64,000 bases of DNA from Escherichia coli (GTDB lineage Bacteria > Pseudomonadota > Gammaproteobacteria > Enterobacterales > Enterobacteriaceae). Position 1 is the first letter of the stretch; every line of letters begins with the position of its first letter. Where the stretch lies: NCBI RefSeq assembly GCF_003334765.1, contig NZ_QOWT01000002.1; one strand, 5' to 3'. Shown here piece after piece: positions 40,537 to 49,403 of this stretch. The notes under the pieces are model-generated. The model searched no databases, was not told where the DNA came from, and worked only from the letters and a program-made list of their open reading frames with translations. Made by a program: the position numbers and the translations under genes.

Positions 40537-40680
40537 AGTTTGCTCCTGCCATAACGTGAAGAAGCAATGACCTGGTGGTCCGTGACTTCCCTACGCTGGC
40601 ATTATCCAGATCAGGTGATACGGGTATTTCTCAGCCTTCACGCAGAAGGGCACCCCGAGTCGTTTGGTTGCGATGATAAA
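40537..40680 (-). promoter_or_regulatory. TPP riboswitch (thi-box) in the thiM leader
   Basis: Reverse complement contains CTCGGGGTGCCCTTCTGCGTGAAGGCTGAGAAATACCCGTATCACCTGATCTGGATAATGCCAGCGTAGGGAAGTC, the thiM THI-element aptamer as I recall it. Confidence 0.85.
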
Positions 40681-41976: not shown

Positions 41977-42194
41977 CTCAATCCTTTAGGCTTGCATGTT
42001 ATCTTCAGCCCAGGATGATTCTTAAATCAGCTATTTCCGCTGACTCTCTGCTCGCTAAGGATGCTTTTAGGGCATCCTTTCATTTACACTTTTTACGAAA
42101 TCATGGGATCACTAACAAAATATCGCTTGTCAGTTATATTGTATGGCAGGAAAGATATGCGACTGATATTACAGATCCCCAAAGTGGAGAGTTT

Positions 42195-42533
42195 ATGACC
42201 ATTAAAAATAAGATGTTGCTGGGTGCGCTTTTGCTGGTTACCAGTGCCGCCTGGGCCGCACCAGCCACCGCGGGTTCGACCAATACCTCGGGAATTTCTA
42301 AGTATGAGTTAAGTAGTTTCATTGCTGACTTTAAGCATTTCAAACCAGGGGACACCGTACCAGAAATGTACCGTACCGATGAGTACAACATTAAGCAGTG
42401 GCAGTTGCGTAACCTGCCCGCGCCTGATGCCGGGACGCACTGGACCTATATGGGTGGCGCGTACGTGTTGATCAGCGACACCGACGGTAAAATCATTAAA
42501 GCCTACGACGGTGAGATTTTTTATCATCGCTAA
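42195..42533 (+). CDS. rcnB: Periplasmic Ni/Co homeostasis protein RcnB (YohN)
   Basis: 112 aa from MTIKNKMLLGALLLVTSAAWA (signal peptide); the ORF-track start at 42015 is rejected. Confidence 0.85.
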   Translation: MTIKNKMLLGALLLVTSAAWAAPATAGSTNTSGISKYELSSFIADFKHFKPGDTVPEMYRTDEYNIKQWQLRNLPAPDAGTHWTYMGGAYVLISDTDGKIIKAYDGEIFYHR

Positions 42534-42558
42534 AAAAAGCCCCCTCATCATGAGGGGG
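42532..42558. terminator. Hairpin between convergent rcnB and yehA; intrinsic terminator on the reverse strand, possibly bidirectional
   Basis: ccccctca-tca-tgaggggg stem-loop flanked by a 7-A run on the forward strand (a T-run on the reverse strand). Confidence 0.6.
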
Positions 42559-42614
42559 AAATGCAGACACCTTGTTATTTTTTATTATTAGCCACTTGCT
42601 CGTCTTGCTTGTTA

Positions 42615-43649
42615 TTAGTCGTATTTCACGTTGATTAATGCGGTTGCCTCCAGTGCGCCAGATTTAACTTTGTTTGTATCGTAGACGTAGTAACTGGCTG
42701 TTATCGGAATTGAAACCGTTGTATCTGTAAGTTTTGACTTCGCCGCAACTTCCTTTAAATTTGTATATCCTTTACTGCTGTTAGTGATATTTAAAAGTGT
42801 GACTGGCGAACCATTACTTTCAAGAATAAATCCTACGCCATTATCTTCCGCACCTTTCAGTATTGTGTTGCTGTTGGTTAACAAGTCAGAACTTGATAAA
42901 TACACCTGCATTTTCCGTGATGTTTGATTTTGTTGACCTAATAAATTTTTACAACGCAGAATAATATCCCCTTGTTTACTATTTATTGTTGCTTTGTTAC
43001 CTGTGGCTGGTAATTGTGAAACGGGAATACTGTCTAAAGTAATTAATAAATCGTCCGGTTTGCAGGTTGTGGTTATCGGGTTGTATGACAATGTCAGATT
43101 AAAGGAATAGACACCTGCATTTTGTGCCAATGCATTTCTGTAGCTATTTACACATGCATCCCATGACTTGCCACCTAATAAACACAGTAGAAATTGTACT
43201 GCGGCACTCCCGCGTGTCGATGATGAAGCACTGGATAATGTCGCAACACCATTAATCATCACTGAACCGCCGCCCCCCGCAGAAACATTCACTTTTGCAT
43301 TACTGGCCGCAGGTGTCACCGTAACTGAATAACCACTGGTGAAACTGGTCTGATTATTTGACAACGTGATGTTGTTTTTATTGGTCCATTCAAAATGTAA
43401 ATTTAATTTTATGGTATCGTTATAAAGTCCAACAATAATATCCGACGGGCTCATAGGGGTGATAGTATTTGTACTTACGCATGACGAATCATTAAAATTA
43501 TGCTCATATGTCGCCATTTGTGTTTGAGTAAGTGCAAAATCCCCCTGAACAACCAAGTTGTGCTGAACAGATAACTCACTATAACATGCCGCATAGCTCA
43601 CAGGCATAACCATCATCATTAATATAAATAGCATTATGCGAATTTCCAT
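42615..43649 (-). CDS. yehA: Fimbrial adhesin-like protein YehA
   Basis: 344-aa AT-rich ORF with signal peptide, last gene of the chaperone-usher cluster. Confidence 0.85.
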   Translation of the reverse strand: MEIRIMLFILMMMVMPVSYAACYSELSVQHNLVVQGDFALTQTQMATYEHNFNDSSCVSTNTITPMSPSDIIVGLYNDTIKLNLHFEWTNKNNITLSNNQTSFTSGYSVTVTPAASNAKVNVSAGGGGSVMINGVATLSSASSSTRGSAAVQFLLCLLGGKSWDACVNSYRNALAQNAGVYSFNLTLSYNPITTTCKPDDLLITLDSIPVSQLPATGNKATINSKQGDIILRCKNLLGQQNQTSRKMQVYLSSSDLLTNSNTILKGAEDNGVGFILESNGSPVTLLNITNSSKGYTNLKEVAAKSKLTDTTVSIPITASYYVYDTNKVKSGALEATALINVKYD

Positions 43650-43664
43650 AGAACCACCTGACTA

Positions 43665-46145
43665 TTACTGGCAAATATAATTTCTACTTTCATCAATCTC
43701 TTTACCGAAGGTGATTGTGCATGAAAGTCCTTGTTGCTTATCAATTGCCACATTAACCGATGGCGGTACTTCATTGGTGCGAATAAATAACTGACTTCCC
43801 TGGCCGACAACGCCAATATTATGACCATGGATATCATTGACTTCATAACCAAACGTTAATGATTGCCCATCTGCTCTTAACGCTTTTATAAACCATGGCT
43901 TGCGCTGATCGGTATCAAAATTAACCAGTACAACCGCGCCGCGATAAGGGGCGGCAATTTTCCGGTTGCCACGTAATTCTGCTTCGCTATCGCTTTGCGA
44001 CACATCCAGCATCAGGTGATTTTCCCGATAAGGTGTCATTCCGTCGTATATCACCACTCCATTACGGTTTGTTGTGCGATATTTTTGCCCATTGACATAA
44101 GCATCTTTAATTCCTGGCGCATTCATCACAGCAAACGTTTCGGAAAGACGGTTCGCCAGATTAACGCCACCCGACCAGGCGACAATGCCCCCTGAAACAC
44201 TGGCTCCAGCCTGTCGATAAGTACTCGACTGACTATAACTGCCATTCACTGTCGCAACCGGCGCGTTCCAGGTCAAATTCGCCCCAGCTGTCGTTTCATT
44301 TCCCTGATGTTGATGACTCAGGTTGACACCATAATTGAACTGATCCCGACTCCCTACTGTTCCTGATAATCCCGTATTATTTGAGGCAAACCCCTGATCA
44401 TCAAACGTCGTTGAGTTAGACATATATATTTGCCGACGAGGCGTCGAAACGTCATCACCCCAATCAAAGGGAATCGATATAAAAATATTAAAACGTTTCT
44501 CTTCATGATGATTCTCGTCATAAGCCTGGCTTGCCGCGAGGGTATAGCTTATCCGTCGCAGGTTGTTGGAATAACTCAACTGATAATCCTTACTACTGCC
44601 GCTACGCCCCCAGTAATCTCGCCATAACGTACTTAATGACACAGACCCCCAACCTTCTGGCAATGACTGGCTCATATTGGCGGAAAAGCTATTTTTGCGG
44701 CCAAAATCGTTCTGGTAATAATCGGCAATGTCATAGACATCGTTTTCATCACGGCGATAATTATCTTTGTTGTTTGCCCAAACGTGATCGTTAAATGTCC
44801 GGTAATCACGCGACGAATAACGCCAGGCCGCCAGACCAAAACGCGTCGACGTTTGGCTCACAAATTTGTTGTAGGCAATTTGATAACTTTGCCCGTCAAA
44901 CACATCGCCGTTGTCTTGTTTACTATGCGACTTAGTGGCATCGACGGAAATGGCACCAATGCGTGTATTCCAGCCAGCCCCCAAAGTAAACGCGTAATAA
45001 TTATTCGCGACCATCGAGCCACCATACAGCGTCAATAAATTATTAAAACCATACTGATAACCCGCCTGGACAAAATCACTTTGTTTGCTCGCCCCTTCAA
45101 TATGGCTACGACCCGCCGCTAAATCATATTTCGACACGCCGGGTTGCAGCATATTTGGCACCGCTGCATAAGGCACCAGATAGGTGGTTACCGAGCCGTC
45201 CGCCTCTTTCACGCTGACATCAAGATCTGCTCCACCACCGGCCAACTGCAAATCTGTAATCGCGAACGGGCCAGGAGGAACCTCTTTCTGATAAACGACA
45301 AAACCATTCTGTTCAATAGTTACCAGCGCGTTACTCTGAGCAATCCCCTGCACCCGTGGCGTAAAATTTTGTTTCGAGTTAGGCAACATCTGCATATCAC
45401 GAAACAACCGCACACCTCTGAAGCGAACAGAATCAAAAATATCGCTTGATGTGTACATATCACCCACGCGAAGCGTGCCGAGAAGTTGGGCAAATCCACG
45501 TTCCAGATACAGGGTATTGCTTTTCCACACCCCTGGATTGTTATTTGTTTTACTGAAACTGGCATCAGAATGCAGTTGCCACCCCAGTAAATTTAACCCG
45601 CTGTTAAAACGTACATATGTACTCTTGTTATTACCCGACGCTTTATAGTCGCTGTAATACTGACTCAGATAATAAGAGGTATAAAACGCATTAATACCCC
45701 GCTCCCAGTTTTCCGGTGGAACATAGCCACTTTCCAGTTCTTCCACCCAGGCCTGCGGGACACTGAAATCGAGACGAAAAACCCCGATATCCCAGGTATA
45801 GCTCCCACCCTGAACAAGTTGCTCAAATGTTAAACATTGCTTACCGCTGGCGAAGTTATCGCTATTAATGCCTAACCGCTTGATAACTTCTCTTGATAAA
45901 CATGTTTCTTGCGGGTTGTCTTTAACAATAATCTCATATTTCCCGCGCCATTGCTTATTGACATAAATATCGATGTCATACTGCCCCGGTAAGGGTTGAT
46001 TATCATCAAGACGAATATTTGCAACCTGCTGGTCTTTCATTCCACCTATCATAAAATGGGTATCAAAGGTTTCTTCAGCTGCATAAGCTTCAATGCCGAG
46101 CAATAACGCTACGATTGCTGATGCAAGTGGGGTCATTCTCAACAT
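43665..46145 (-). CDS. yehB: Fimbrial outer-membrane usher YehB
   Basis: About 826 aa with FimD/PapC-like features. Confidence 0.88.
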   Translation of the reverse strand: MLRMTPLASAIVALLLGIEAYAAEETFDTHFMIGGMKDQQVANIRLDDNQPLPGQYDIDIYVNKQWRGKYEIIVKDNPQETCLSREVIKRLGINSDNFASGKQCLTFEQLVQGGSYTWDIGVFRLDFSVPQAWVEELESGYVPPENWERGINAFYTSYYLSQYYSDYKASGNNKSTYVRFNSGLNLLGWQLHSDASFSKTNNNPGVWKSNTLYLERGFAQLLGTLRVGDMYTSSDIFDSVRFRGVRLFRDMQMLPNSKQNFTPRVQGIAQSNALVTIEQNGFVVYQKEVPPGPFAITDLQLAGGGADLDVSVKEADGSVTTYLVPYAAVPNMLQPGVSKYDLAAGRSHIEGASKQSDFVQAGYQYGFNNLLTLYGGSMVANNYYAFTLGAGWNTRIGAISVDATKSHSKQDNGDVFDGQSYQIAYNKFVSQTSTRFGLAAWRYSSRDYRTFNDHVWANNKDNYRRDENDVYDIADYYQNDFGRKNSFSANMSQSLPEGWGSVSLSTLWRDYWGRSGSSKDYQLSYSNNLRRISYTLAASQAYDENHHEEKRFNIFISIPFDWGDDVSTPRRQIYMSNSTTFDDQGFASNNTGLSGTVGSRDQFNYGVNLSHQHQGNETTAGANLTWNAPVATVNGSYSQSSTYRQAGASVSGGIVAWSGGVNLANRLSETFAVMNAPGIKDAYVNGQKYRTTNRNGVVIYDGMTPYRENHLMLDVSQSDSEAELRGNRKIAAPYRGAVVLVNFDTDQRKPWFIKALRADGQSLTFGYEVNDIHGHNIGVVGQGSQLFIRTNEVPPSVNVAIDKQQGLSCTITFGKEIDESRNYICQ

Positions 46146-46160
46146 AGGCAGCTCCTGCAA

Positions 46161-46880
46161 TTAAATTTTGTCACTAATATAGTTGCCATGGTCATCGATA
46201 ATGGTCAGATGCCAGTTATTTGCATTATTACTTTTGACATTAACACTCTGACTTTCTAAGGGGGCAATCATAATAGTTTCATAATTGACTTTGACATTAT
46301 TAGCTTTGACATCCGAAATCGTCACCCAATTAGCTGAGTCATTTTTTATCACCAAACCATTGCCACTGCGATTTACCAGCAATTTTTTAAATGTCGCTTT
46401 ATTTACCGGAGCAATACCCGCTGGCCGGTAAAACAACTTAATTCTGTTTTGCATCGCAAACTTCAGTGCATTCTTACCTTCTTGCTCTGGACTATTTGGT
46501 GGAATATCCAGAACATTCAGATAAAAAATGCTTTCTTTATTAGTGGGCAGTTTATTCGGCATAATTTTGATTTTTACTTGCTGCCCGGAATTTGCCCCTA
46601 TTTTTGCCACTGGTGGCGTTAACATGAAAGGAACCTGAATTTTTTCTGGTGGTAATGACGTATCGCCATCATCAATCCACGCCTGCAGCAGCGAAGAACG
46701 GTTTCCCTGGTTCATCAACTGCACCATCACTTCTTTATTTTCTGCCGGGTAAATAATGCGCGTCCCGTAGATAACAATTCCGGCATGTGCAGGAAGGACC
46801 ATAGAAAAAATGAGTAAAGATAATAATCCTTTCATTTTAATGCCTCTTAAATTAAAAGGCCGCCATGGGATAGCGGCCAT
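46161..46880 (-). CDS. yehC: Periplasmic fimbrial chaperone YehC
   Basis: PapD-like chaperone; exact start (46880 or the internal MKGLLSLLIF) uncertain. Confidence 0.85.
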   Translation of the reverse strand: MAAIPWRPFNLRGIKMKGLLSLLIFSMVLPAHAGIVIYGTRIIYPAENKEVMVQLMNQGNRSSLLQAWIDDGDTSLPPEKIQVPFMLTPPVAKIGANSGQQVKIKIMPNKLPTNKESIFYLNVLDIPPNSPEQEGKNALKFAMQNRIKLFYRPAGIAPVNKATFKKLLVNRSGNGLVIKNDSANWVTISDVKANNVKVNYETIMIAPLESQSVNVKSNNANNWHLTIIDDHGNYISDKI

Positions 46881-46914
46881 GTTTATTACCTGGAGAAACT
46901 TACAATTTTATTTA

Positions 46915-47457
46915 TTAATCCTGCGCCACACGCATAACCAGAGAAGATAACACATCACCTGATTGCACTGAGTTATCTGTCAGTTTCAGGTATTTTGCTT
47001 TAAACGGAATAGCATATTGACCTTCCGCTGTTTTATAACTCTCAATGTTAAAAGGTGCAGAAACATCCAGGACATCGCTGTTATCACCTAAATAGAGATA
47101 GTAACCCACGGTATCGTTGCTACTGGCTATCGCCTTATCGTTACCGGTTATTTTATCGTTGGTAATCAACGAGAGTTTTACACCAGCAACTTCTTTCGGG
47201 CAGCTAATTTTTAACATGCTGCTGGTTACACCGACTGCATCATCATAGGTAGAATATTTAGCTTTACCTTCAAAGACACTGGTTGGTACAGTCGGCATAT
47301 TAATACTTACTGAATCACCACCCGCTTCGAATTTACACGGAGATTGTGCAATATTCCCCTTAATAGTTAATGTTCCGGTATCAACGTCTGCAGCAAATAC
47401 TCCAGCGCTCATAAAAAAAGAAGAAAAGACAGCGACAGCAATAATTGAACGTTTCAT
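46915..47457 (-). CDS. yehD: Fimbrial major subunit-like protein YehD
   Basis: 180 aa with signal peptide MKRSIIAVAVFSSFFMSAGVFA. Confidence 0.85.
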   Translation of the reverse strand: MKRSIIAVAVFSSFFMSAGVFAADVDTGTLTIKGNIAQSPCKFEAGGDSVSINMPTVPTSVFEGKAKYSTYDDAVGVTSSMLKISCPKEVAGVKLSLITNDKITGNDKAIASSNDTVGYYLYLGDNSDVLDVSAPFNIESYKTAEGQYAIPFKAKYLKLTDNSVQSGDVLSSLVMRVAQD

Positions 47458-47681
47458 AATATGTTCCTTAATAAAATTTATTTTTGGTTGTTAAGAGTCT
47501 GTATCTCTTGGAAACAAATTTCTCACATCAAAAAAGTTGCCGCAATGTAAACACATTGTTTTATTGATTTAAAACAAATTAACCATTGCAATATAAATAC
47601 AACAAATATTTAAGAGTATTAACTATTTATCGCATCTATCAATTAATGTAGATTTATGTAAATGGTATTGTTGATATCAAT

Positions 47682-47719
47682 AAAAAAGCCGAAATCATTT
47701 ATATAAATGATTTCGGCTT
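47682..47719 (-). terminator. Intrinsic terminator downstream of yehE
   Basis: Perfect palindrome aagccgaaatcatttatataaatgatttcggctt followed on the reverse strand by TTTTTTATT. Confidence 0.65.
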
Positions 47720-47749
47720 TCTAAATGCAATTAAAATCAGGTTGCCAAA

Positions 47750-48031
47750 TTAATCGTAGCGATTTAACACGATTCGACGTTTGCTATCGCTACCTGCAAC
47801 AACCACTTCTGTCGTTACACCTTTGACGGGCGAAGAAAACAGATGACGGGTGTCAACATTATACGTTAACTGACCACAATGCTGTTGAGGTTGACCATTA
47901 ACCATAGCCATACTGCATGTTGGGGGACTGATCCTGCCATTAATCGCTAATGTGGCAGTCTCTGAAGAGAATGCGGGAGAAGCCAATCCATAGGCAAGAA
48001 AAATAATTCCTGACAGCCAATACTTATTCAT
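47750..48031 (-). CDS. yehE: Small secreted protein YehE (DUF2574)
   Basis: 93 aa with signal peptide MNKYWLSGIIFLAYGLASPAFS. Confidence 0.8.
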   Translation of the reverse strand: MNKYWLSGIIFLAYGLASPAFSSETATLAINGRISPPTCSMAMVNGQPQQHCGQLTYNVDTRHLFSSPVKGVTTEVVVAGSDSKRRIVLNRYD

Positions 48032-48293
48032 TGAACGTTATCCCTGTAGTAAAGGTTATGCCTGGATAGAATGAGTGCATAACAAACTATAGCTGTACAT
48101 CCACTACACAGCCACGAAGGATGATAATGAAGCATTGCCTGTATGATCAATCGACTTTGTAGAGTTTCGGACGAAGGTCCGCAGAATATTCGCAGTATTA
48201 AATAAGTGTTCATTAATGCGGCAAAAACTAATACACCGCATCAATGTAACATCTCTGCGGTGTATGAAGAATAACCAGAATGGTTAATAGGCG

Positions 48294-49403
48294 TTAGACC
48301 GCGCGGAAGGAAATCTCGCCTGGAATGACTTCACCCTGCCAGTAGAGCTGAGCTGCAACGCGGTCAGCCAGCTGGCGGTAGATAGCGGTAAATTCGCTCT
48401 CCGGACGGCTGATAACCGTTGGCGTACCTTTATCGAGATCCTCACGTAAGGAGATGTGTAACGGCATCTGCCCCAGCAGCTGTGTATGGTATTTTTCAGC
48501 CAGTTTCTCTGCACCACCGGTACCGAAAATCGGTTCATGGTGACCACAGTTACTGCAAATATGCACACTCATGTTCTCGACAATACCGAGCACCGGAACC
48601 TCGACTTTCTCGAACATCACAATGCCTTTTTTCGCATCGATCAGCGCGATGTCCTGCGGGGTGGTGACCACGACTGCACCGGTTACTGGAATGTTTTGCG
48701 CCAGCGTCAATTGAATGTCACCGGTGCCTGGCGGCATATCAAGCACCAGATAGTCGAGATCCGGCCACAAGGTTTCCTGCAACATCTGCATTAACGCCTT
48801 GCTCGCCATCGGTCCACGCCACACCATCGCATTGTCGTCAGTGACCAGATAACCAATTGAATTGGTTGCCAGGCCATGAGACATAATCGGTGCCATATGG
48901 GTACCGTCCGGCGAAGTTGGACGCTGATTTTCTGCGCCCAACATTGTTGGGATTGATGGGCCGTAGATATCGGCGTCCAGAATGCCGACTTTCGCCCCTT
49001 CTGCCGCCAGCGCCAGTGCCAGGTTTACCGCCGTGGACGATTTACCCACGCCGCCTTTACCGGAACTCACCGCGATAATGTTCTTCACACCGTTAATTCC
49101 CGGCTGATTCTTCACGCGTTTCAGAGTGGCTATGTTATGCGACAGTTTCCAGTCGATAGCTTTCGCCCCGGTGATGCGCAGCAGTTCGGCGCTACATTGC
49201 TCTTTTAACTCTTCGAACGCGCTATGCCAGACAAACGGCATAACCAGTTCCACATGCAACGTGTCGTCCATCCAGGCGACATGGTGCAACGCTTTCAGCG
49301 TGGTGAGGTTATGCTTCAGGGTTGGGTGCTGAAAATTGGCCAGTGTCCCGGCGACCATTGCGCGCAAGGCTTCTGGTGATTTGGCCTGGGATTGTTCGTT
49401 CAT
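48294..49403 (-). CDS. mrp: Fe-S cluster carrier P-loop ATPase Mrp/ApbC
   Basis: 369 aa from MNEQSQAKSPEALRAMVAG, deviant Walker A SGKGGVGKS and CxxC motif. Confidence 0.92.
   Translation of the reverse strand: MNEQSQAKSPEALRAMVAGTLANFQHPTLKHNLTTLKALHHVAWMDDTLHVELVMPFVWHSAFEELKEQCSAELLRITGAKAIDWKLSHNIATLKRVKNQPGINGVKNIIAVSSGKGGVGKSSTAVNLALALAAEGAKVGILDADIYGPSIPTMLGAENQRPTSPDGTHMAPIMSHGLATNSIGYLVTDDNAMVWRGPMASKALMQMLQETLWPDLDYLVLDMPPGTGDIQLTLAQNIPVTGAVVVTTPQDIALIDAKKGIVMFEKVEVPVLGIVENMSVHICSNCGHHEPIFGTGGAEKLAEKYHTQLLGQMPLHISLREDLDKGTPTVISRPESEFTAIYRQLADRVAAQLYWQGEVIPGEISFRAV

Follow-up and report, generated by a model that had tools for sequence, protein, structure and literature searches.

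The AT-rich Yeh fimbrial locus of Escherichia coli and a conserved predicted terminator downstream of yehE

Five genes of the same orientation form an AT-rich block within the window (the whole 64,000-nt stretch of E. coli DNA that was analysed), and a perfect palindrome lies between yehE and the four genes yehDCBA. This arrangement raises two questions: whether the block is transcribed as one unit or two, and whether its base composition is the mark of recent horizontal acquisition.

Genes and base composition of the Yeh locus

The region 42615–48031 comprises yehA, yehB, yehC, yehD and yehE, all on the minus strand, and the coordinates of the open reading frames agree exactly with the annotation (Table 1). 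Together they make up the Yeh chaperone–usher fimbrial cluster of E. coli, which is well known and normally silent. The region is 100% identical in E. coli strain H3, the spacer between yehD and yehE is 99.7% identical between the window and K-12 strains, and 5227 of 5426 complete E. coli genomes carry this annotation at the same site. Scanning genome contigs with the YehE protein also revealed the locus in several further Escherichia species. The locus agrees with the K-12 Yeh locus (yehDCBA b2108–b2111, yehE b2112) in location, gene order and gene lengths, with no difference of substance, so that the published properties apply: it is cryptic, silenced by H-NS and activated by SlyA, and it functions when a constitutive promoter drives it (PMC3559732, PMC5797941).

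Table 1. Features of the Yeh locus in the window
Feature	Position	Strand	Description and basis
Hairpin after yehA	42532–42558	minus	Terminator-like; stem-loop 42540–42558 (CCCCCTCATGATGAGGGGG), then C + T7 (42538–42532)
yehA	42615–43649	minus	Two-domain fimbrial tip adhesin, 344 aa; annotation; NCBIfam NF011788, 689 bits (cut-off 395)
yehB	43665–46145	minus	Outer-membrane usher; RefSeq annotation of identical sequence
yehC	46161–46835	minus	Periplasmic chaperone, 224 aa form; annotation; NCBIfam chaperone families, E = 1e-95 to 1e-103
yehD–yehC hairpin	46848–46878 (stem-loop 46858–46878)	minus	GGCCGCTATCCCATGGCGGCC then TTTTAATTT; scan and fold
yehD	46915–47457	minus	Major fimbrial subunit, 180 aa; annotation; NCBIfam YehD model, E = 1e-31 (under that model's curated cut-off)
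Conserved region upstream of yehD	47458–47610	minus	Presumably promoter and 5′ UTR; near-invariant in eight Escherichia alleles
AT-rich yehD–yehE spacer	47458–47749		Matches published H-NS-bound promoter island (PMC3661553 Table 1)
yehE intrinsic terminator (predicted)	47679–47720	minus	Perfect 36-bp palindrome 47685–47720 + tail U6AUU
yehE	47750–48031	minus	Secreted 93-aa protein, DUF2574; Pfam PF10836, E = 1.8e-52
Probable yehE promoter region	48010–48160	minus	Promoter scan and sigma-S peak (PMC4447067), placed in the window via K-12 coordinates
Hairpin after apbC (mrp)	48231–48265	minus	−21.8 kcal/mol, z = −3.1

The components of a chaperone–usher operon are all encoded, with genes for a PapD-like chaperone, an usher, a major pilin and a tip adhesin. 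YehD and YehA match NCBIfam fimbrial models, and the Fimbrial domain (PF00419) is present on their orthologues. For the usher, the PapC_N, Usher and PapC_C domains were found on the yehB orthologues of three other loci (L009, L011 and L013), the protein of the window itself not being part of that scan. The yehC orthologues carry PapD_N and PapD_C, and YehC matches the StcB chaperone model with 343 bits (E = 7e-103); the longer form that begins at the 239-aa K-12 start lies in a frame that is not kept in other alleles. A 61-aa open reading frame (48028–48213) that overlaps the yehE start codon (ATGA) was considered as a coupled upstream gene and rejected as spurious, since most other alleles have stop codons that interrupt its frame and it gives no family match. 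A search of Rfam with 42000–48700 gave only chance-level matches on two hairpins (24–28 bits against gathering scores of 56–102) and no known RNA family.

The GC content of 42615–48031 is 41.6%, compared with 50.9% for the window, and is the lowest of all spans of equal length; non-overlapping spans range from 46.8% to 56.9%. It is 38.7% in yehA, 45.5% in yehB, 39.0% in yehC, 40.3% in yehD and 44.0% in yehE, as against 49.9% and 54.0% in the flanking rcnB and apbC (mrp). The third codon position accentuates this, with 33–44% GC in the yeh genes and 60–62% in the flanking genes, and the 292-bp yehD–yehE spacer falls to 24.7%. The original prediction that the cluster is AT-richer than its neighbours rcnB and mrp is thus borne out. 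It had also taken the fimbriae to be probably silenced, and here the support comes entirely from published work on H-NS, SlyA and protein occupancy. The yehD–yehE spacer is described as a 'promoter island' bound by H-NS (PMC3661553 Table 1), yehDCBA as a cryptic operon of the H-NS regulon that is activated by SlyA (PMC5797941 Table 2 and text), and the locus as lying within a static domain of extended protein occupancy (bioRxiv 10.1101/2024.06.20.599902). According to the citation of Korea et al. in PMC5797941, surface fimbriae are assembled in K-12 when the operon is expressed constitutively.

The hairpin downstream of yehE

The element begins 29 nt past the yehE stop codon. The palindrome has two arms of 18 nt, after which the minus strand continues as TTTTTTATT (47687–47679). 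A perfect palindrome with a T-run had been predicted here; both are present, and the 34 bp first assigned lie inside the 36 bp found. We estimate that about 1e-6 perfect palindromes of this length would be expected by chance in 64 kb. As RNA it folds with −22 to −24 kcal/mol (z = −5.2), a stability not matched by any of 200 shuffled sequences.

The pairing is maintained while the sequence changes. Over eight Escherichia alleles 98.1% of cells are paired, four of the 13 stem pairs have changed on both sides in a compensatory manner, and the U tail is invariant. Stem pair 20/43, for example, is found as G-C, A-U and U-A. The covariation score was reached in none of 500 shuffles, and controls slid along the alignment pair at 28–52%. 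The G-U wobbles found in the stem can pair only in an RNA with the sequence of the minus strand. C. farmeri has a related hairpin, altered at its base by a compensatory change, in the position of the yehE terminator, and in C. freundii and Superficieibacter the same position is taken by unrelated hairpins.

The G+C-rich base, the short loop, the immediate U tract and the location just past a stop codon are shared with canonical Rho-independent terminators. The stem differs from these in being unusually long (18 bp) and almost all A-U in its upper two-thirds. Its upper half is entirely A-U, so some read-through is possible. To judge from the pattern of substitution the hairpin is a conserved intrinsic terminator, kept by selection, and it would be expected to stop transcription. 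A simple terminator scan did not report it, which we attribute to the rules of the scan on loop size and stem length. The spacer appeared by BLAST to have a second genomic copy (median of two places per genome), and this was rejected as a counting artefact. The extra place consists of the hairpin segment alone, and occurs only in genomes having the perfect palindrome; as we read it, the palindrome also aligns with its own reverse strand and no repeat is involved.

One or two transcription units

That the hairpin is under selection as a terminator argues for two transcription units. We consider the best explanation of the locus, and a likely one, to be two co-oriented units, yehE and yehDCBA, within a single AT-rich, H-NS-bound block.

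The first unit would be yehE alone, transcribed from its own promoter in the apbC–yehE spacer. The promoter scan placed a promoter-like TTGATC-18-TATCAT there at 48150–48121 on the minus strand, and a ChIP-seq peak of sigma-S RNA polymerase (2190800–2190949 in U00096.2) has been assigned to yehE (PMC4447067). On the upstream side, the hairpin following apbC is likely the apbC terminator, separating that gene from yehE. The unit would end at the conserved hairpin, with its 18-bp stem, G+C-rich base and U6AUU tail. The separate termination of yehE, as had been predicted, is well supported by the comparison of alleles and consistent with the sigma-S peak upstream of yehE.

The second unit, yehDCBA, would start in the spacer, of which the 150 bp nearest to yehD is strongly conserved and presumably contains the promoter and 5′ UTR of yehD. 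The core of this region, TTAAATCAATAAAACA (47557–47572) followed by TTTACATTGCGGCAAC (approximately 47535–47550), is retained in C. farmeri, C. freundii and Superficieibacter. No convincing −10 element of a sigma-70 promoter could be placed by eye in the conserved block, and the sole match of the promoter scan in the spacer (47642–47615) is in its variable part.

Within this unit a second conserved hairpin follows the major-subunit gene yehD. It pairs in 96.8% of cells over the eight alleles, with compensatory changes in two of nine pairs, and is a candidate attenuator or stabiliser. In the pap and fim operons a hairpin directly after the major pilin gene raises the amount of major subunit relative to the other components. 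The likeness to yeh is one of position, and the T run of the yeh hairpin is found only in K-12-type alleles.

The unit would end at the hairpin after yehA, the T7 run of which overlaps the rcnB stop codon. O157:H7 and C. farmeri retain its stem but differ in the loop, and C. freundii has an unrelated hairpin here with its T-rich side towards yehA. Closely spaced terminators had been proposed at the rcnB end; there is a single hairpin, oriented to terminate yehA, and a second T-rich run on the plus strand (approximately 42575–42590) has no G+C-rich stem before it. The second unit would be held off by H-NS under laboratory conditions, and SlyA can relieve this.

The principal alternative is a single yehEDCBA operon with yehE as its first gene, in which the hairpin would either attenuate transcription as a partial terminator or stabilise a processed yehE transcript at its 3′ end. 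The genes share one orientation and are inherited jointly as an allelic cassette (see below), the similar hairpin after yehD within the operon is clearly no full stop, and a preprint that names the locus the 'yehEDCBA operon' counts against two units (bioRxiv 10.1101/2024.06.20.599902). Yet the long stem and invariant U6AUU tail are the signature of an efficient intrinsic terminator, and 292 bp of AT-rich spacer with its conserved yehD-proximal region separate yehE from yehD. Overproduction of SlyA raised yehDCBA, and yehE is not among the genes listed (PMC5797941). The DUF2574 gene of Superficieibacter is oriented divergently to the fimbrial operon, which rules out a requirement for co-transcription in that genus. 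We found no mapping of transcript 3′ or 5′ ends for yehE or yehD in the published sources consulted; the supplements of Term-seq and start-site studies among them name none of yehE, yehD and yehA. On balance a single operon seems unlikely.

It is highly improbable that the palindrome acts as DNA (the operator of a dimeric regulator, a cruciform or an H-NS nucleation structure) in the control of yehD: it lies within an H-NS-bound regulatory spacer and compensatory changes preserve the DNA palindrome as well as the RNA stem, but pairing is conserved where base identity is not, G-U pairs of the minus strand are A-C mismatches on the other strand, the T run is always on the yehE side, other genera have completely different hairpin sequences in the same position, and the element stands some 220 bp away from the start codon of yehD and beyond the conserved yehD-proximal block.

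YehE and the ancestry of the cassette

The PF10836 match covers the full length of YehE (residues 1–93 of 93), and the gene is under purifying selection (dN/dS = 0.14–0.27). It adjoins a Yeh-type operon in every locus and genus examined, four genera in total; the scan of genome contigs with a single YehE protein gave only Escherichia loci, and the wider relatives came from a search of representatives and contig look-ups. A PHROG match adds nothing, the family being one of unknown function. The possibility that YehE is itself a pilin was rejected. BLASTP gave E = 3.6 with YehD and no alignment with YehA, and an hhalign match (probability 94%) covers residues 1–42 only, about half of these being signal peptide. 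A complete pilin fold (approximately 130–150 residues with an acceptor groove) is not present. The N-terminus does have the pilin donor-strand motif LxIxGxIxxxxC common to YehD and FimG, the penultimate tyrosine is invariant, and the secreted form of approximately 70 residues is too short to act as a strand acceptor. YehE might serve Yeh-type fimbriae as a dedicated accessory factor that caps or ends fibre growth or competes for YehC, expressed separately from the silenced operon by a sigma-S-bound promoter of its own, but this is speculative and we regard it as rather improbable.

Wurpel et al. classed Yeh as core-associated, with the same locus in Citrobacter and in Salmonella (PMC3559732), where Stc (stcABCD) is the orthologue at the same chromosomal position. 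It thus predates the split of Escherichia and Salmonella and is not a recent import (PMC3559732). Among the seven DUF2574 clusters for which source names were checked, none was from Salmonella.

The O157:H7 allele has the same position, gene order and gene lengths, and likewise a yehE homologue and terminator hairpin, the latter with two compensatory changes relative to the window. The yehE-D-C-B-A cassette nevertheless differs by 12–44% between this strain and O157:H7, whereas the flanking genes differ by 1–2%. Nucleotide identity from yehB to yehE is 75–88% (98–99% in the flanking genes), and the O157:H7 adhesin z3276, an O157:H7-specific PCR marker, has only 34% protein identity with yehA. 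The same O157:H7 allele is 99.1–99.6% identical to that of Escherichia sp. E1V33 (the contig of which was read without its yehA side), while apbC of E1V33 is only 91% identical. These identities indicate that yehE-D-C-B-A is exchanged between Escherichia species as one allelic cassette.

The proposal that the cluster was horizontally acquired therefore stands in part: the allele moves as a cassette and composition-based predictors flag the locus as foreign (PMC3661553), but the locus is ancestral. That its AT-richness shows E. coli to have acquired the whole locus recently is barely tenable. In its favour are the low GC, also at third positions, and the island predictors (PMC3661553). Against it, 5227 of 5426 E. 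coli genomes have the locus at one and the same site, published comparison dates the locus to the Escherichia–Salmonella ancestor (PMC3559732), and the synteny metG-apbC-yehE-D-C-B-A-rcnB common to C. farmeri and C. freundii already contradicts it. The patchy distribution or absence from relatives by which a recent acquisition is recognised was not observed.

The identification of the locus is correct but ordinary, re-finding a catalogued cryptic operon of E. coli K-12; the cluster, its AT-richness and its silencing by H-NS were already known from published work. The selection on the terminator, the linkage of yehE and the exchange of the cassette are modest points beyond this. The reading as two units concerns anyone annotating the locus as 'yehEDCBA'. 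Since yehE travels with Yeh-type operons in four genera and is under purifying selection, it merits a place in functional studies of the Yeh fimbria. Exchange of the whole cassette among Escherichia species matters for diagnostics in which z3276 serves as a marker specific to O157:H7.

Gene content and base composition of the yeh locus

The segment, part of the E. coli chromosome, has 100% identity to strain H3 over 6.7 kb; of 5426 complete E. coli genomes, 5227 carry 80% or more of it. Gene calls were taken from the RefSeq annotation of the identical sequence, and the roles annotated for the yeh genes are consistent with NCBIfam and Pfam matches. The K-12 MG1655 counterparts of yehA–yehE are b2108–b2112, and the yehD–yehE spacer has 99.7% identity to K-12 strains. 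YehD (46918–47457) scores 110 bits against the NCBIfam equivalog 'fimbrial protein YehD', below the curated cut-off of 136; that model seems to be built on another allele class than the K-12-type YehD.

Features of the yeh locus and its flanks
Feature	Position	Strand	Description
rcnB	42195–42533	plus	flanking gene
Terminator-like hairpin	42540–42558	minus	then C and T7
yehA	42615–43649	minus	adhesin
yehB	43665–46145	minus	usher
yehC	46161–46835	minus	chaperone
yehD–yehC hairpin	46858–46878	minus	GGCCGCTATCCCATGGCGGCC; within element 46848–46878
yehD	46915–47457	minus	fimbrial subunit
Conserved motif	47535–47572	minus	TTAAATCAATAAAACA then TTTACATTGCGGCAAC; within 47458–47610; Escherichia, Citrobacter, Superficieibacter
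yehE	47750–48031	minus	full-length DUF2574 match
apbC hairpin	48231–48265	minus	10 + 4 pairs, then UAGUUUUUG; just 3′ of apbC
apbC (mrp)	48294–49403	minus	flanking gene

The cluster is AT-rich, as originally predicted. Its GC content (42615–48031) is 41.6%, compared with 50.9% for the 64-kb window; this is the minimum among all equal-length spans, the non-overlapping ones ranging from 46.8% to 56.9%. Third-position GC is 33–44% in the yeh genes and 60–62% in rcnB, apbC and metG, while the yehD–yehE spacer has a GC content of 24.7%. In strain ES7 the yeh region is broken by IS1, and in strain HCP30S3_I2 it is largely absent, the match being limited to 42000–42078; both are in keeping with a published figure of ~92% intact yeh operons. 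A TPP riboswitch (40571–40667, minus strand) precedes thiM; it matches Rfam RF00059 at 71 bits, which exceeds the gathering score, and is likewise annotated in the identical RefSeq record.

Age of the locus and exchange of its alleles

The proposal of horizontal acquisition holds only in part: the locus as such is old, but its alleles are exchanged as a unit. Citrobacter farmeri and C. freundii have the same synteny, metG–apbC–DUF2574–pilin–chaperone–usher–adhesin–rcnB, and Wurpel et al. describe Yeh as core-associated and note its presence at this chromosomal position in Salmonella (as Stc) and Citrobacter (PMC3559732). Comparison of 42615–48200 with the loci of O157:H7 and Escherichia sp. 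E1V33 reveals that yehE-D-C-B-A acts as a single allelic cassette. Between the window strain and O157:H7 the cassette diverges by 12–44%, compared with about 1–2% for flanking genes. Identities are 98.8% for rcnB and 97.6% for apbC in the flanks, and 87.7, 84.0, 79.9 and 75% for yehB, yehC, yehD and yehE respectively, with dS of 0.64–1.2 in the cassette and 0.11 in apbC. yehA is essentially unalignable (protein identity 34%); the O157:H7 gene in its position is z3276, a known O157:H7-specific PCR marker (PMC6060243). Lying within this divergent block, yehE counts as part of the Yeh locus.

From yehB to yehE, O157:H7 is 99.1–99.6% identical to E1V33, which is not E. coli, yet apbC is just 91.0% and metG 94.6% identical. 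These identities indicate that the yeh allele was recently replaced between Escherichia species.

Hairpins and conserved elements of the spacers

The palindrome between yehE and yehD is perfect, as had been stated, but is 36 bp in length (47685–47720) rather than 34. Its start lies 29 nt beyond the yehE stop codon, and it reads AAAGCCGAAAUCAUUUAU/AUAAAUGAUUUCGGCUUU on the yehE strand followed by UUUAUU, the tail becoming U6AUU once three basal A-U pairs are excluded. As RNA its folding energy is −22 to −24 kcal/mol (z = −5.2). We aligned eight Escherichia alleles (the window, O157:H7, two other E. coli lineages, E. albertii, E. whittamii and two further Escherichia species). In the stem 98.1% of cells are paired, compared with just 28–52% when partners are slid by 1–3 columns. 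Four of the 13 pairs have changes on both sides, one being found as G-C, A-U and U-A, and the U6-7AUU tail is unchanged throughout. The stem includes G-U pairs that would give A-C mismatches on the opposite strand, which suggests that it is the minus-strand transcript that functions. C. farmeri has a related hairpin with a compensatory change at its base, while C. freundii and Superficieibacter have wholly different hairpins at the same site 3′ of the DUF2574 gene. Judged by these comparisons selection maintains the hairpin as an RNA structure, and it looks like a conserved intrinsic terminator; the covarying stem, invariant tail and hairpins in other genera all support the prediction that it terminates yehE. 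A search of published data for direct 3′ ends at this hairpin found none.

Some 150 bp 5′ of the yehD start codon hardly vary among Escherichia alleles that are 15–25% divergent in their coding regions. A core, TTAAATCAATAAAACA...TT(T/C)ACATTG(C/A)G..TAAC, is retained in Citrobacter and Superficieibacter, so that the motif persists amid divergence of both the surrounding spacer and the coding genes. Neither a promoter element nor a binding protein could be assigned to it.

The hairpin between yehD and yehC, absent from the original prediction, is conserved among alleles and has two compensatory pairs; the T run required of a terminator follows it in K-12-type alleles only. In the pap and fim operons hairpins in this position increase the share of major-subunit message, and by analogy we infer that this one may raise that of yehD. 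The K-12 annotation gives a YehC of 239 aa starting inside the hairpin (window 46836–46880; 5427–6146 of the K-12 record L015), and PGAP one of 224 aa. Other alleles do not keep the longer N-terminus in frame, and a good ribosome-binding site, AAGAGG, precedes the shorter start.

At the rcnB end closely spaced terminators had been proposed; a single terminator-like element was seen there. Its T7 overlaps the rcnB stop codon, and its orientation suits termination of yehA. Read on the plus strand it leads into AAAUGCAG and so makes a poor terminator of rcnB transcripts. O157:H7 and C. farmeri retain the stem; in C. freundii the position is taken by another hairpin.

YehE, silencing and transcription units

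YehE belongs to a very small family, with 27 matches at E ≤ 0.001 in 1.84 billion representative proteins. Family members are known here from Escherichia, Shigella, Citrobacter, some Klebsiella and Superficieibacter. The DUF2574 gene adjoins a Yeh-type operon in every locus examined, including that of Superficieibacter sp. (L011, 5975–7273), where both are at a different chromosomal site and the DUF2574 and pilin genes are divergently transcribed. There the hairpin of the DUF2574 gene is followed by (TTCTGC)n, a hexanucleotide repeat with an assembly gap. The dN/dS of yehE (0.14–0.27) marks it as a real gene under constraint. The protein carries a signal peptide; two of its cysteines and its penultimate tyrosine are invariant.

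Residues 1–42 align with YehD (hhalign probability 94%) and, weakly, with FimG at its N-terminus, but about half of the aligned stretch is signal peptide, so the likeness to pilins is weak evidence. The mature segment common to the three is an LxIxGxIxxxxC motif, in FimG the donor-strand region. An AlphaFold model from a 28-sequence alignment has a five-stranded beta core (pLDDT 73–87) with a poorly ordered N-terminal segment, and had no significant match in the PDB. That YehE might serve as an accessory factor or cap bearing a donor strand is an idea of low probability.

Both the yeh locus and its silencing had been described before; the original observation was largely correct, and its interpretation, including probable silencing, mostly right. 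The yehD/yehE spacer is among H-NS-bound 'promoter islands' and is flagged as foreign by island predictors (PMC3661553). yehDCBA is a cryptic operon of the H-NS regulon, up 3.6-fold with SlyA overproduction (PMC5797941); as cited there, Korea et al. reported H-NS repression, and fimbriae that were functional when their expression was forced. Protein-occupancy data place the locus in a static domain of extended occupancy (bioRxiv 10.1101/2024.06.20.599902). In ChIP-seq of sigma-S RNA polymerase, a peak assigned to yehE (2190800–2190949, U00096.2; PMC4447067) maps via K-12 coordinates to ~48010–48160, directly upstream of the yehE start, and includes a promoter-like site at 48150–48121. The hairpin 3′ of apbC is likely its terminator, isolating yehE from apbC transcription. 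Together with the published silencing data these features fit an arrangement in which yehE would be a monocistronic unit and yehDCBA a separate one.
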